Part shown: piece by piece, positions 24,129 through 33,720 of the stretch
Numbering within the stretch: position 1 is the first letter of the stretch
Layout of the letters: the number at the start of each line of letters is the position of its first letter
Sequence record: NC_020079.1
Origin: Escherichia phage phAPEC8
Length of the DNA: 64,000 nucleotides
Strand: one strand, 5' to 3'
Made by a program: the position numbers and the translations under genes
The notes under the pieces: generated by a model
Database searches by the model: none
The model's input: the letters and a program-made list of their open reading frames with translations, nothing else
Told to the model about the DNA's origin: nothing

Positions 24129-24929
24129 TTATTTGTTTAAGTGGTCTTCGACCATTTTAATGAAACCTTCATTGCTGAAGGCTGTTGCAGCTTTTTCTCG
24201 GTAAACAAAAACTCCACGATCTTCATAGAGAAGTGTTTCTTCGTAATTAACTCCAGGGTTAACTACAACCATTTTTGTTCCGATGTTAAGAGCAGGAAAA
24301 AGCTCCCAGTTAAAATTGATAACTTGATTAGAGCAACCCACTACAATCACCATATCTTGAGCCGTCAAGCCGTCTAAGATGTGGTACATATCGTTATACA
24401 ATGGGGCAGTCTCCCCAAAGAACACTACATTGGGCTTCACATACTTGTAATCATCTACATCGATAGCAGCATAGCCAACATCTTTGATGATTCTATTGTC
24501 TACGATCACTTCAGGCAGGAAGCCGTGAACATGTAGAACATCTTCATGAACAACACCTGCTTGTTCCAGAAGATCATCTACGTTTGTCGTGATGTTGATA
24601 ACACGATCACAGCCGTACTCTTGGAACCACTCTGCGATCTGGTAATGCGCAGCGTTAGGAGACACACTATCCATCTCTACGCGACGTTTATTGTAGAAGT
24701 CATGAGTTTTACGGTAGAGGTTGTATCCCTCTGCATCTAATCCACCAACAGCGCCAGGAACACACTGTTCTTGCTGGTAGCCAGCACGGAAATTGAAAAT
24801 ATCGCACACTTCAGAAAGGTCGTATTCATCCCACAAAGCTTTCCCACTATCTGTATCAGTGCGGAAAGTACGTACACCGCTATCGGCGCTTAGACCCGCG
24901 CCGCTGATCACTATTAATCGTCTTGGCAT
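24129..24929 (-). CDS. SIR2-family (sirtuin-like) NAD-dependent protein, no zinc-ribbon module
   Basis: GAGLSADSGVRTFR, NAAHYQIAEW, NITTNVDDLLEQAG, HVHG, KPNVVFFGE, VVGCSNQV, VVVNP; no CxxC pairs. Confidence 0.75.
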   Translation of the reverse strand: MPRRLIVISGAGLSADSGVRTFRTDTDSGKALWDEYDLSEVCDIFNFRAGYQQEQCVPGAVGGLDAEGYNLYRKTHDFYNKRRVEMDSVSPNAAHYQIAEWFQEYGCDRVINITTNVDDLLEQAGVVHEDVLHVHGFLPEVIVDNRIIKDVGYAAIDVDDYKYVKPNVVFFGETAPLYNDMYHILDGLTAQDMVIVVGCSNQVINFNWELFPALNIGTKMVVVNPGVNYEETLLYEDRGVFVYREKAATAFSNEGFIKMVEDHLNK

Positions 24930-25417
24930 TCTTCCTCCTCATAATCATCATAATCTTCGTCATCCAAATCGTACACTTCGTCTTGAGAATAACTCACTTC
25001 AAAGTAAATATCAAACTCCGCAAACAAACGTAGAATGTTGGACATGCTGTAATAATTATCGTAGGCAGATTCAGCTTCATAGTAAACATAAAGCAAATGG
25101 TTAGCCTTATCATCTTCCAAATATTTCCCGTCTGCATACGCATAGTCTGCATATGCTTTACCTGCATCTTCCACAAGAGAACGATCAAGCAGAGTAGGAA
25201 ATGGTTTCTCTTTTTCTTTTAGTTTGCTCACCAACCAGTGTGCAATATCATGCCAATCTGCATCCTCTCCGCTGAAGCAGCTTGCGACTTCGCCAAACTT
25301 GGCATCTCCTAAGTCTCCGCTAATAGTGATCATGGTTGAACTATTGTAACCACAAGTCTCGCAATTTGAACAACTGTTGTGCACATGAATTTCTACTTGA
25401 AACATATTTCCTCCCAT
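24914..25417 (-). CDS. hypothetical protein with N-terminal Cys cluster and acidic C-terminus
   Basis: CSNCETCG; DD/EE-rich tail; overlaps SIR2 start by 16 nt. Confidence 0.5.
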   Translation of the reverse strand: MGGNMFQVEIHVHNSCSNCETCGYNSSTMITISGDLGDAKFGEVASCFSGEDADWHDIAHWLVSKLKEKEKPFPTLLDRSLVEDAGKAYADYAYADGKYLEDDKANHLLYVYYEAESAYDNYYSMSNILRLFAEFDIYFEVSYSQDEVYDLDDEDYDDYEEEECQDD

Positions 25418-25463
25418 AAAAGAAAAGCCCCCTGAAACAGGAGGCTTTGTTCAGATATCGGCA

Positions 25464-26117
25464 CTATATCAGACTTTCAAGGTATTTGTCAAGGGCTTCT
25501 TGATCACCTTGACAAACATAGCAACGGAAGTCTTGAGCCGAAGGTTGTTTATTTTCATCCCAGTCCCAATAAACATTACCCTTATAACGTGAACCAGGAA
25601 ACTCAAAAGAGGCTGTATGTGTAATGTATCCTGGGCCACCAGTGAAATCACAGAATGAGAATTGGGGGTATGCCGCCTTTACTGCCTCAATAAACCAAGC
25701 TTTACGATCTAAAGCTTCATTGATGCTATACGCATGTCTCTCCATTTCTTCCCACGTTTTCCAGACACTTCTCTCATCAGGAGAAAAGACAAGCCATTCT
25801 GGAAGGTACAGAGTGTCATAGTAATCATCATATTCGATCTCGGAGGCGCACGAAGCTGACTCCTCCAGTTTTGAGTAATCAAAAGCAGAATATACCCACC
25901 AACCATCTTCCAGTAACGCTTTGATAGGGACGAAGCCTTTATCAGCATATTGATCGAATTGTTTGACACGGTGGCTTGTGCAGTCTTCAAACTCACATTC
26001 TAAACGATATGCACCTTTTCGACGAGCCTCAAGACCGTGTGTACTGAAAATAACAACACTTCCTTCACCATCATTACGATCTACTTGATAAGCAACTACT
26101 GGTTTTGAATTTGACAT
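25464..26117 (-). CDS. hypothetical protein
   Basis: ORF tiling. Confidence 0.5.
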   Translation of the reverse strand: MSNSKPVVAYQVDRNDGEGSVVIFSTHGLEARRKGAYRLECEFEDCTSHRVKQFDQYADKGFVPIKALLEDGWWVYSAFDYSKLEESASCASEIEYDDYYDTLYLPEWLVFSPDERSVWKTWEEMERHAYSINEALDRKAWFIEAVKAAYPQFSFCDFTGGPGYITHTASFEFPGSRYKGNVYWDWDENKQPSAQDFRCYVCQGDQEALDKYLESLI

Positions 26118-26800
26118 TATTTCTCCTTATCTAGAAGATTGTTAGACAAAAACACTGCACGAGCAAAACCACGTGCGGTTAAGGATCTAAGTTGTTTTGT
26201 TTTTGCACTAGCTCCACCTAAGCTTTTCCAACCCCAGAAGCAGCCTATATGATCTACTGGTTTCTTCACTGGTTGAACAAAACCATTGCCGTGCCAAATA
26301 CAAGTTTTCTTTGTATACCCATCACGGGTAGGCATTTTAGGATGAAAGCTTCCTTCCTCTTCAAACAAATACCCACCATACTCATAAGGATCAAAGTAAA
26401 AATCGGGTTTACGCCATAAGGTTGAAAGTTTACCTACTGGGTTCTCAATCATCCAAGGAACATTATATTTGTTACCCAAAGCTTCCACTACACGAATATT
26501 AGCTAAAGCTTCATCTAGTTCCTCTGTGCTACGTTCGTGTTTGCTACCACTACCTGCTAACATAGTGCAAGGTGGAAATCCAAAAATAATATCGGGTTTA
26601 GGTATCCCATGATCTTCAGGGTTGAATGTAGAATCTATCCAGGCATTCACATAGGTTATGTTTGGGTGCTCCATCCTAACCTCGTATTTACCGTGATCCC
26701 CTTCATCAGCGTTTACACAAAAACACTTGTGACCTGCTTCGGCATAACGTAACACCATGATCCCAGATCCGTCAAACATAGACAAAACTGTTTTACTCAT
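26117..26800 (-). CDS. C5-cytosine methyltransferase-like protein
   Basis: FDGSG (motif I-like), GFPPCT (PC motif), ENP (ENV-like); start set at MSKT with SD GGAGGGG. Confidence 0.4.
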   Translation of the reverse strand: MSKTVLSMFDGSGIMVLRYAEAGHKCFCVNADEGDHGKYEVRMEHPNITYVNAWIDSTFNPEDHGIPKPDIIFGFPPCTMLAGSGSKHERSTEELDEALANIRVVEALGNKYNVPWMIENPVGKLSTLWRKPDFYFDPYEYGGYLFEEEGSFHPKMPTRDGYTKKTCIWHGNGFVQPVKKPVDHIGCFWGWKSLGGASAKTKQLRSLTARGFARAVFLSNNLLDKEK

Positions 26801-27206
26801 TACCCCTCCATTCAAGACAAGCCATAACTTTACGCCAATCACTTTCTGTAAGAAAAATCTCGTTTGCTTTCTTCCACAAATCTAAATCGTGAAGGGTTGG
26901 AATACGATATGTTAGTTCACAGAATCTATGCTCTTCTTCTGTAATATAACCAAAATGCAGAGCCACATCGTGAAACCAACACCAACCATGCATCTCTCGA
27001 ACAACATGGTCATGCTGAGACATTGTTTTATGCCGTAAACCTAACCAACAAGGAACAGATACTTTAGTAGTCTTTAATCTGTGATCAACAGTATTAGAGT
27101 ATTCAATAATAGCTGTCAGTTTCAATCGTGCTTTTTCTAAATCCTCATGGGTCACTTTGAAATAACTTTCTGAAAGATATCCACACATATTAATAACCTC
27201 CTTCAA
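26793..27206 (-). CDS. hypothetical protein
   Basis: ORF tiling. Confidence 0.5.
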   Translation of the reverse strand: MKEVINMCGYLSESYFKVTHEDLEKARLKLTAIIEYSNTVDHRLKTTKVSVPCWLGLRHKTMSQHDHVVREMHGWCWFHDVALHFGYITEEEHRFCELTYRIPTLHDLDLWKKANEIFLTESDWRKVMACLEWRGNE

Positions 27207-28131
27207 AAGGCTTAACTACATGTTGATTAGCTTTAAAACGTTCAACATAATCGTTTTCGCCCATGTTTTCATATAGCTTAGTAACAACATAAAAGTTTTC
27301 CCAAGCATATTCCCTAAACCAACCACTAGTGATGGATGTGCAGACTTTAGATAAAGCCATTATAAAACTTTGCTTAGGGGTTGGACCTCCGATCTCTTCA
27401 CCGAAAGGAATTTGTGAACGTTCCAAAGCCAAAACACACGCTTCTTCATAAACACCTAACAGGCGCACATGTTTTGGTTGAGCAAAAAACTTTTCTTTGC
27501 TGGTCATAACTTCACTTCCATCTTTCATATAAGATTTATATGCTGGAGCATCCATTACCGCGATTGCTTCATGGATAGAATCATGATCATAAACATACGG
27601 AACCTCATCACCTTTAAAGAAGTCTTTACTTTTTACGTTTAAGTTCGGATGAGAGTAAGTGTATGTTTCTTTCTCACGCAATTCATAAATACTCTTAAGA
27701 TTTTCTGGGATCTTTGCACCCAGTGACCGCATGAAATGAATATCTTTCATAGTTTTAAAGAAGTGAGGACTATCCTTTTTAAAACGATGACTCATTTTAA
27801 GAAGGTAGAGCACATCTAAAGGAGCAACAACATGTCCAGCGTAAGTTCGACGAACATCATCAGAACCTTCACAATAACTAATCAAAGCTTCTGTGCTATC
27901 TCCTTGAGAAGCAATATCATATTCCAAATGTGCACCAGCTATCATTTTGACATGGCCTTTGTTTCCTTTACGTTCTACAAGTTCAACAAACTCATCTTGA
28001 GAGAACATTTTTGATAATTCTTCCCACTCTTGTTCTGTACACAGGTAATCTAAATCTACACAAGGGCGATACAAGTCTTTTCCCATGTCCATAGCATGAA
28101 TTTGTAATGCACGGCTACCAATTAACACCAT
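27190..28131 (-). CDS. Pol-beta-superfamily nucleotidyltransferase-like protein
   Basis: N-terminal GS-x(n)-VDLD signature (IGSRALQ...CVDLDYL). Confidence 0.4.
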   Translation of the reverse strand: MVLIGSRALQIHAMDMGKDLYRPCVDLDYLCTEQEWEELSKMFSQDEFVELVERKGNKGHVKMIAGAHLEYDIASQGDSTEALISYCEGSDDVRRTYAGHVVAPLDVLYLLKMSHRFKKDSPHFFKTMKDIHFMRSLGAKIPENLKSIYELREKETYTYSHPNLNVKSKDFFKGDEVPYVYDHDSIHEAIAVMDAPAYKSYMKDGSEVMTSKEKFFAQPKHVRLLGVYEEACVLALERSQIPFGEEIGGPTPKQSFIMALSKVCTSITSGWFREYAWENFYVVTKLYENMGENDYVERFKANQHVVKPFEGGY

Positions 28132-33210: not shown

Positions 33211-33720
33211 TTAAACAAAATAAAATGGTTGAGAGAGGCCCAAACGATTCTTTGGGTCGTATACATACCAAGCGTATGCTGTCTTATCTGTTCCACCTGC
33301 AACAAACGAAGGCCGTTCTGAAAGGACTATAAGGTTTGTTGGTGGATTCTTTTGATGGAACTCTCGTCGTTTCTTTGACTCCAAGAAGCCCAACCGAAGA
33401 AGATAAATACAAACATCCGCCTCTTTTAAGCTCTTTTCCAAGAACTCCATTGCTAACTTAAATGGAGGATTTGTGATTATAATATCGGGACGATTTTCCC
33501 ATTTATGACTAAAATAATCTTTACCTTCTTCAAGTTCGCAATATTCTGAACCTTCAGGAAAATGGCGATAAATCGCTTCAGCTTCACCTCTACAAGGTTC
33601 TGCAAAAACCCAACCTTCTTCCTTTAGATTTTTGAAATCTATAACACTAAACAAACTATTGATTGCTTTTTGCGGTGTCGGATAATAATCGCTCGTTGGG
33701 CGATCATAATCTAATGCCAT
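33211..33720 (-). CDS. DNA N6-adenine methyltransferase-like protein
   Basis: DIIITNPPF motif IV; EPCRGEA motif I-like. Confidence 0.6.
   Translation of the reverse strand: MALDYDRPTSDYYPTPQKAINSLFSVIDFKNLKEEGWVFAEPCRGEAEAIYRHFPEGSEYCELEEGKDYFSHKWENRPDIIITNPPFKLAMEFLEKSLKEADVCIYLLRLGFLESKKRREFHQKNPPTNLIVLSERPSFVAGGTDKTAYAWYVYDPKNRLGLSQPFYFV

Follow-up and report, generated by a model that had tools for sequence, protein, structure and literature searches.

One member of the short phage family of DNA cytosine-C5 methyltransferases has been characterised in phage K42, where it sets off the retron Ec86 defence. In all four K42 mutants that escaped the retron, the lesions mapped to a 711-bp dcm gene or to the DNA immediately upstream of it, and expression of this gene stopped growth only in cells with retron Ec86. 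The msDNA (multicopy single-stranded DNA) of dcm-expressing cells had high 5-methylcytosine (5mC) by liquid chromatography–mass spectrometry, a C82A/E128A/K175A/K176A mutant of the enzyme was inactive, and 34 of 35 Ec86-sensitive phages encode such a Dcm (10.1101/2023.08.16.553469; later papers cite the published version as 'DNA methylation activates retron Ec86 filaments for antiphage defense'). Here we describe a gene of the same family in Escherichia phage phAPEC8 (sequence record NC_020079.1). It lies in a stretch of 64,000 nucleotides, the whole of which we call the window.

Canonical type II cytosine-C5 methyltransferases have ~290–380 amino acids (aa) and the motifs PCQ, ENV and QxRxR, whereas the phAPEC8 protein has 227 aa and the motifs PCT, ENP and YTKKT. 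Its motifs I, IV and VI come in the same order and at the same intervals as in M.HhaI and M.HaeIII (both PF00145), and the catalytic-domain fold is shared. Catalytic motifs I–VI are also shared with E. coli Dcm and M.EcoRII, and the Dcm name is used in several phage annotations.

The product of the phAPEC8 gene is very probably a stand-alone (orphan) member of the short 'Dcm-like' family and an active DNA cytosine-C5 methyltransferase dependent on S-adenosylmethionine (AdoMet); we infer its activity and its biological role from the analysis below. The gene is a typical representative of its phage family, which is common, already annotated and in part characterised. The enzyme occurs in ~3% of sequenced phage genomes and is routinely labelled 'Dcm', and it is without the domain that normally reads DNA sequence. 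It is also a predicted trigger for defences of the retron Ec86/Eco1 type, which bears on the choice of Phapecoctavirus phages for therapy or host-range work. We recommend that the annotation place it on the minus strand and name it an orphan DNA cytosine-C5 methyltransferase from the short phage family.

The phAPEC8 gene and its relatives

The gene and its translation signal are as follows:

26117–26800, minus strand: complete open reading frame (ORF) of the short cytosine-C5 DNA methyltransferase, 227 aa plus a TAA stop (ORF list, phrog_757 match, AlphaFold model)
26803–26809, minus strand: Shine-Dalgarno sequence GGAGGGG, 5' of the ATG at 26798–26800 (read from the sequence)

A preliminary description of the window had reported this ORF, at about 227 aa, without a strand; the ORF is real and lies on the minus strand. 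In the alignment, its homologues begin at the same residue as the minus-strand ATG at 26798–26800. This shared start and the Shine-Dalgarno sequence both support ATG 26800, so GTG 26842 is unlikely to be the start. The methyltransferase gene shares bases with both of its neighbours: its stop with the ATG of the gene that follows (TAATG at 26115–26119), and its start with the end of the gene upstream. It therefore belongs to a minus-strand block of tightly packed genes.

RefSeq has a protein 100% identical to the phAPEC8 one, YP_009986795.1 of phage ukendt, under the name 'DNA methyltransferase' with the note 'Dcm'. Identical GenBank/RefSeq proteins already carry one or the other of these labels, and most other records with this gene call it hypothetical. 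The 6 kb around the gene are 99% identical to Dompiswa phage TSP7_1 and 93–99% identical to many Phapecoctavirus (phAPEC8-like) coliphages of ~150 kb, and the paper describing those phages already lists methyltransferases for the cluster (10.1101/2020.01.19.911818).

The link to an active enzyme runs through BASEL phage KarlJaspers (Bas06), to which K42 is 95% identical (10.1101/2023.08.16.553469). The KarlJaspers gene for a 'Dcm-like C5 cytosine methyltransferase' is exactly 711 bp, and its product is 50% identical to the phAPEC8 protein over residues 5–220 (E 1e-71). The four residues mutated together in K42 (C82, E128, K175 and K176, in KarlJaspers numbering too) align with C78, E119, K164 and K165, and all four are conserved. 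Given this identity and these residues, the phAPEC8 protein is a clear member of a family with an active representative. The K42/KarlJaspers Dcm agrees with it in architecture, in the motifs PCT, ENP and [Y/F]xKKT and in its C-terminal RSLTPRGFARAVF, and is 236 aa long versus 227 aa here. The phages that carry the two genes differ: KarlJaspers is a 51-kb Drexlerviridae siphovirus, whereas the phAPEC8 gene is in a 150-kb Phapecoctavirus myovirus.

The family itself is large and uniform. The phAPEC8 protein matches phrog_757 ('DNA methyltransferase') over its full length (residues 1–225, E 1.8e-84). At least 870 homologues have 215–245 aa, many of them ≥60% identical although they come from very different phages. 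A 50%-cluster library contained 1888 representatives at E ≤1e-3, and the best 150 of those 1888 are nearly all short (~90–350 aa), plus two longer fusions. Family lengths of ~200–260 aa go with a single-domain architecture, the members compared here measuring 202–256 aa. Homologues are present in 1486 of 50,697 phage records, including Drexlerviridae, Webervirus, Jersey-like phages, Dhillonvirus and Vequintavirus.

Catalytic domain and C-terminal region

The catalytic motifs are located as follows:

26762–26776, minus strand: motif I FDGSG (residues 9–13), the AdoMet-binding glycine loop; D10, G11, S12 and G13 are invariant in 43 homologues, and hhalign pairs the loop with M.HhaI FAGLGG
26564–26581, minus strand: motif IV GFPPCT (residues 74–79), codons GGA TTT CCA CCT TGC ACT
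26567–26569, minus strand: codon of Cys78, the catalytic nucleophile, invariant across the family and aligned with M.HhaI Cys81 and KarlJaspers/K42 Dcm Cys82
26438–26446, minus strand: motif VI ENP (residues 119–121), aligned with M.HhaI ENV 119–121; Glu119, equivalent to K42 Dcm E128, is the presumed proton donor to cytosine N3
26303–26317, minus strand: motif VIII-like strand YTKKT (residues 162–166); K164 and K165 correspond to K42 Dcm K175 and K176

In the AlphaFold model, FDGSG comes right after a predicted strand (residues 4–8) and Pro77-Cys78 after another (71–74), with Thr79 and not Gln as the next residue. Residues invariant in 43 close homologues are D10–G13, P76, C78, T79, E119–P121, K164, T166 and much of the C-terminus; N220 is likewise invariant in close homologues. 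When the comparison is extended to 63 members with identity down to ~32%, C78, G85, E119, P121, P138, Y162, W169 and P177 are still invariant, and T79, N120, K164, T166, R205, S206, G211 and A215 are ≥90% conserved. FDGSG, GFPPCT and ENP, all named in the preliminary description, are present as it stated and are too strictly conserved to be there by chance. Since T79 is ≥90% conserved across 63 diverse members, the alignments present PCT in place of PCQ as a signature of the family, not as a lesion or a sign of decay.

We compared the short family with a canonical alignment consisting of M.HhaI, six phage cytosine-C5 methyltransferases and E. coli Dcm (the M.HhaI sequence was confirmed against PDB: 752 bits, 1–327 of 327). 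Profile–profile alignment with hhalign gave E 1.8e-4 over 120 columns, with residues 1–127 matching M.HhaI 10–127. The pairs are FDGSG with FAGLGG, N30 with E40 (motif II), P77-C78 with P80-C81, G85 with G88, and E119-N120-P121 with E119-N120-V121. This places Cys78 at M.HhaI Cys81, i.e., inside the methyltransferase active site, as the preliminary description had supposed. The same method is weak against single sequences (E 0.039 for E. coli Dcm, E 0.024 for M.HhaI). Sequence searches of PDB with the protein or the family profile gave E 0.07–0.16 over motifs I–IV (best match M.HaeIII, E 0.08), and PADLOC returned weak matches only, to type II or orphan methyltransferases (E 1e-4).

YTKKT lies outside every significant alignment. 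It is conserved and has the same position and distance from motif VI as M.HhaI QKRER 161–165, and, going by the structural superposition of the K42 authors, it may be the counterpart of motif VIII.

The AlphaFold model has a predicted local distance difference test score of 89.4 and a predicted template-modelling score of 0.88, and its strands and helices alternate as in a class I methyltransferase. All of the top 50 Foldseek matches are DNMT3A/B catalytic domains (E 4e-8 to 2e-6), and bacterial cytosine-C5 methyltransferases are the next closest in fold. In a viral structure library, the model matches phage 'DNA-cytosine methylase' models of the same family with template-modelling (TM) scores of 0.93–0.80. 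Identity to the DNMT3A/DNMT3B catalytic domain (PDB 6u8p, 8eih, 2qrv) is only 14–20%, and DNMT3 has PWWP/ADD regulatory domains, separate motifs IX and X, and an oligomeric assembly with DNMT3L. Judging from the predicted model, the DNMT3 likeness is a structural resemblance and not membership. By the structure search, the short family is nearer to DNMT3 than to Dcm-like enzymes.

The fold also bears on the substrate. DNMT2 has the fold and motifs of a DNA methyltransferase but acts on transfer RNA (tRNA), so the phAPEC8 protein could in principle be an RNA (e.g., tRNA) cytosine-C5 methyltransferase of the same kind. We consider this very unlikely: DNMT3A/B and bacterial DNA methyltransferases outscore DNMT2 in both structure searches, and the K42 homologue raised 5mC in the DNA part of msDNA.

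Beyond the motif VIII-like strand, the protein departs from the canonical enzymes, and two further features are relevant:

26189–26302, minus strand: short basic spacer (residues 167–204) where a target-recognition domain would be, defined by its length and charge
26150–26188, minus strand: C-terminal helix RSLTARGFARAVF (residues 205–217), resembling motif IX (RxLTPRE) followed by GxAxAV, which recalls motif X; R205, S206, G211 and A215 are ≥90% conserved

The distance from YTKKT to RSLT (residue 205) is 38 residues here, with a family median of 39 and a range of 35–46, whereas the corresponding spacer between motifs VIII and IX is 76–165 aa in seven canonical enzymes. A spacer of 38–39 aa holds no target-recognition (small) domain between these motifs, and the preliminary description was correct in seeing no obvious one. 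For E. coli Dcm in particular, the hhalign alignment ends at motif VI and there is no room here for its CCWGG recognition domain.

The C-terminal 61 residues have an isoelectric point (pI) of 10.1, compared with 5.2 for the first 166 residues, and such a basic C-terminus would fit a nucleic-acid-binding tail. When C-terminal halves were aligned separately with hhalign, RSLTARGFARAVF paired with RKLTPRE of canonical enzymes only at E 0.12, and its GxAxAV tail is reminiscent of the motif X sequence GNAV. From the motif IX-like RSLT to the C-terminus there are ~21 residues, versus ~50–56 in canonical enzymes, so a separate motif X helix is probably absent. Read from its sequence, the C-terminal region may be a compressed motif IX/X.

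Function and target specificity

The preliminary description had offered two options for this protein, the first of which was a minimal orphan DNA methyltransferase. That option agrees with our results: the fold and catalytic residues match cytosine-C5 enzymes, neither a restriction enzyme nor any other partner gene is conserved beside it, and a 50%-identical homologue makes 5mC in DNA in vivo.

If canonical cytosine-C5 chemistry applies, the FDGSG loop and Asn30 would hold AdoMet, Cys78 in the PC loop would attack C6 of a flipped-out cytosine and Glu119 would protonate N3. The methyl group would then pass to C5, and beta-elimination would free the enzyme. The basic C-terminal 60 residues may replace the missing target-recognition domain in contacting DNA. 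During infection, phage DNA and incidentally host DNA would be methylated, most likely for the purpose of blunting some host restriction enzymes. As a side effect, the phage would produce a protein of the kind that retron Ec86 (Eco1) senses through methylation of its msDNA.

Several observations weigh against this account. The PF00145 score is 11.6 bits (E 0.18), under the 22-bit cut-off, and the match covers residues 4–92, i.e., motifs I–IV only; an NCBIfam search with the protein gave no match. The K42 work used over-expression and a mutant with four residues changed at once. With no target-recognition domain and an apparently compressed motif IX/X region, DNA recognition is left unexplained. 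According to the BASEL study, Vequintavirinae and their relatives, Phapecoctavirus included, are exceptionally sensitive to restriction-modification, and the presence of methyltransferase genes had no straightforward relation to restriction resistance (PMC8594841). The anti-restriction role is therefore unproven. Finally, GGCC, GTAC and CCGG are strongly avoided in the window (observed/expected, O/E, of 0.29, 0.37 and 0.46), which suggests that these sites are not protected by methylation.

Restriction-site avoidance in the window makes broad protective methylation unlikely. Not all sites are avoided: GATC has an O/E of 1.0, and CCWGG, with 74 sites and an O/E of 0.98, is neither avoided nor enriched and so is uninformative. 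Site frequencies across the window did not reveal the target of the methyltransferase. Also avoided in the window are CTGCAG (0 sites vs 11.2 expected), GGATCC (0 vs 10.1), TCCGGA (0 vs 8.0) and CTAG (O/E 0.53).

Some of the points above would suit a catalytically dead methyltransferase-like protein kept as a DNA- or AdoMet-binding factor (e.g., a decoy or regulator). Such a protein could score under the PF00145 threshold, have non-canonical motifs (PCT, ENP and YTKKT for PCQ, ENV and QxRxR) and do without a recognition domain or a separate motif X. However, hundreds of diverged sequences all retain the nucleophilic Cys, the motif VI Glu and the glycine loop, and a homologue with the same variant motifs, K42 Dcm, is active. 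A dead protein is therefore highly unlikely.

The second option in the preliminary description was a pyrimidine-C5-modifying enzyme acting on nucleotides, i.e., one that modifies free pyrimidine nucleotides ahead of their incorporation into DNA. All that speaks for it is the small size and the absent DNA-recognition domain. The known nucleotide-level C5 enzymes belong to the thymidylate-synthase fold, which counts against this option, as does the finding that the best structural matches are without exception enzymes for DNA or, with DNMT2, for tRNA. The strongly basic C-terminal third is what one would expect of a nucleic-acid binder, the characterised homologue acts on polymeric msDNA, and bulk base replacement fits poorly with the restriction sensitivity reported for relatives (PMC8594841). 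The option found no support, and we regard it as exceedingly improbable.

The enzyme might instead transfer a group other than methyl to cytosine C5, such as carboxymethyl from carboxy-SAM (carboxy-S-adenosylmethionine) as phage CmoX does, in a first hypermodification step. This possibility hinges on the residue at the position of M.HhaI N304, which is Arg in CmoX, and on the accompanying phage genes for CmoA and an amide ligase (PMC12783734). In phAPEC8, R214 is not conserved in the wider family, and in the 18 kb around the methyltransferase RefSeq annotates neither CmoA nor a ligase nor any further modification gene. CmoX scores no better than ordinary methyltransferases in the structure search, 5mC was the product detected for the K42 homologue, and relatives are highly restriction-sensitive (PMC8594841). 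A CmoX-like activity thus has only a slim chance of being correct.

Literature searches found no measured recognition sequence or phage methylome for the short family. The K42 study took CCWGG specificity from the Dcm name, its sole support being msDNA stem mutations that abolish defence (10.1101/2023.08.16.553469). MG1655, the host of the retron assays, carries its own dcm (b1961). Control msDNA in this host had little 5mC, and the retron was silent without auto-activation (10.1101/2023.08.16.553469). The true target of the phage enzyme may differ from that of host Dcm.

We tentatively propose, as a possibility that we would not yet favour, that the short family is not a CCWGG-specific Dcm but a minimal cytosine-C5 methyltransferase without a recognition domain, nearest to DNMT3 in fold and with motifs IX and X fused in one helix. 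Such an enzyme would choose a very short or a relaxed target, or else one set by DNA structure (DNA in single-stranded or hairpin form, for example msDNA or replication intermediates). If so, this would explain why a dcm-positive host leaves retron Ec86 silent while the phage enzyme triggers it, why over-expression is toxic, and why the gene fails to predict restriction resistance. With the specificity of the short family established, it would also become clearer how retron Ec86 distinguishes methylation by the phage from that by the host.

Genomic neighbourhood and distribution

The neighbours of the methyltransferase gene encode a 313-aa DUF7277/DUF7275 protein, three proteins of no assigned function (137, 217 and 167 aa) and a Sir2 protein. 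Across 80 viral loci, there is no conserved partner gene beside the methyltransferase. Those neighbours found in the window recur in only 2–5 of the 80 loci, all of them large-phage relatives, and the commonest neighbour clusters (up to 39 of 80 loci) belong to a single set of close relatives, phages of ~50 kb. The idea of a recognition subunit encoded by a gene of its own and acting in trans was considered and rejected, since no neighbour is conserved across the 80 loci. Two cellular copies, in Bdellovibrio and Serratia genomes, were examined for membership of a restriction-modification pair, which was likewise rejected for them: both sit in prophage replication modules, and no nuclease was recognised beside either.

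Gene order is nonetheless kept in five diverged large-phage contigs: the DUF7277/DUF7275 gene (27190–28131), the cytosine-C5 methyltransferase gene, the gene for the 217-aa phrog_8514 protein (25464–26117) and the Sir2 gene (24129–24929). The block at 24129–28131 is on the minus strand, with the start of the phrog_8514 gene overlapping the methyltransferase stop. The methyltransferases of these five contigs are only 64–94% identical, and the block is absent from most other methyltransferase-carrying phages. The shared order may reflect a functional module or simply synteny.

A second candidate methyltransferase gene lies further away in the window:

33211–33720, minus strand: 169-aa N6-methyltransferase-like ORF with YYPTPQ, AEPCRGEA and IIITNPPF (amino-methyltransferase motif IV)

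This ORF matches phrog_799 ('DNA methyltransferase') with E 8e-59 over profile positions 206–373 of 458, and it has no Pfam match. Its sequence makes a very small methyltransferase of the N6-adenine (or N4-cytosine) type probable, in which case the phage would carry two orphan methyltransferases ~6.4 kb apart. The preliminary description had placed an N6-adenine methyltransferase-like gene next to the cytosine-C5 gene; the likeness is real (NPPF, phrog_799), but the two are not adjacent, being separated by 6.4 kb and ~16 annotated genes.

The short methyltransferase also occurs fused to other domains. Two proteins in BFVD from uncultured Caudovirales, A0A6J5SE15 (1397 aa) and A0A6J5NPY6 (1126 aa), contain its fold as one domain (25–28% identity, TM scores 0.63–0.65). 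One of the two is annotated 'Helicase/UvrB, N-terminal', so the module has been joined at least once to a helicase-type protein.

Copies of the methyltransferase are also carried by 36 'Campylobacter phage' records, including MG065635 (C12, 137.6 kb) and MG065685 (A112a). These copies show the same level of identity as those in E. coli Vequintavirus or Drexlerviridae phages, and five of the records match the DNA of the window by megablast. The 'Campylobacter phage' records look like coliphage genomes with a mislabelled host.

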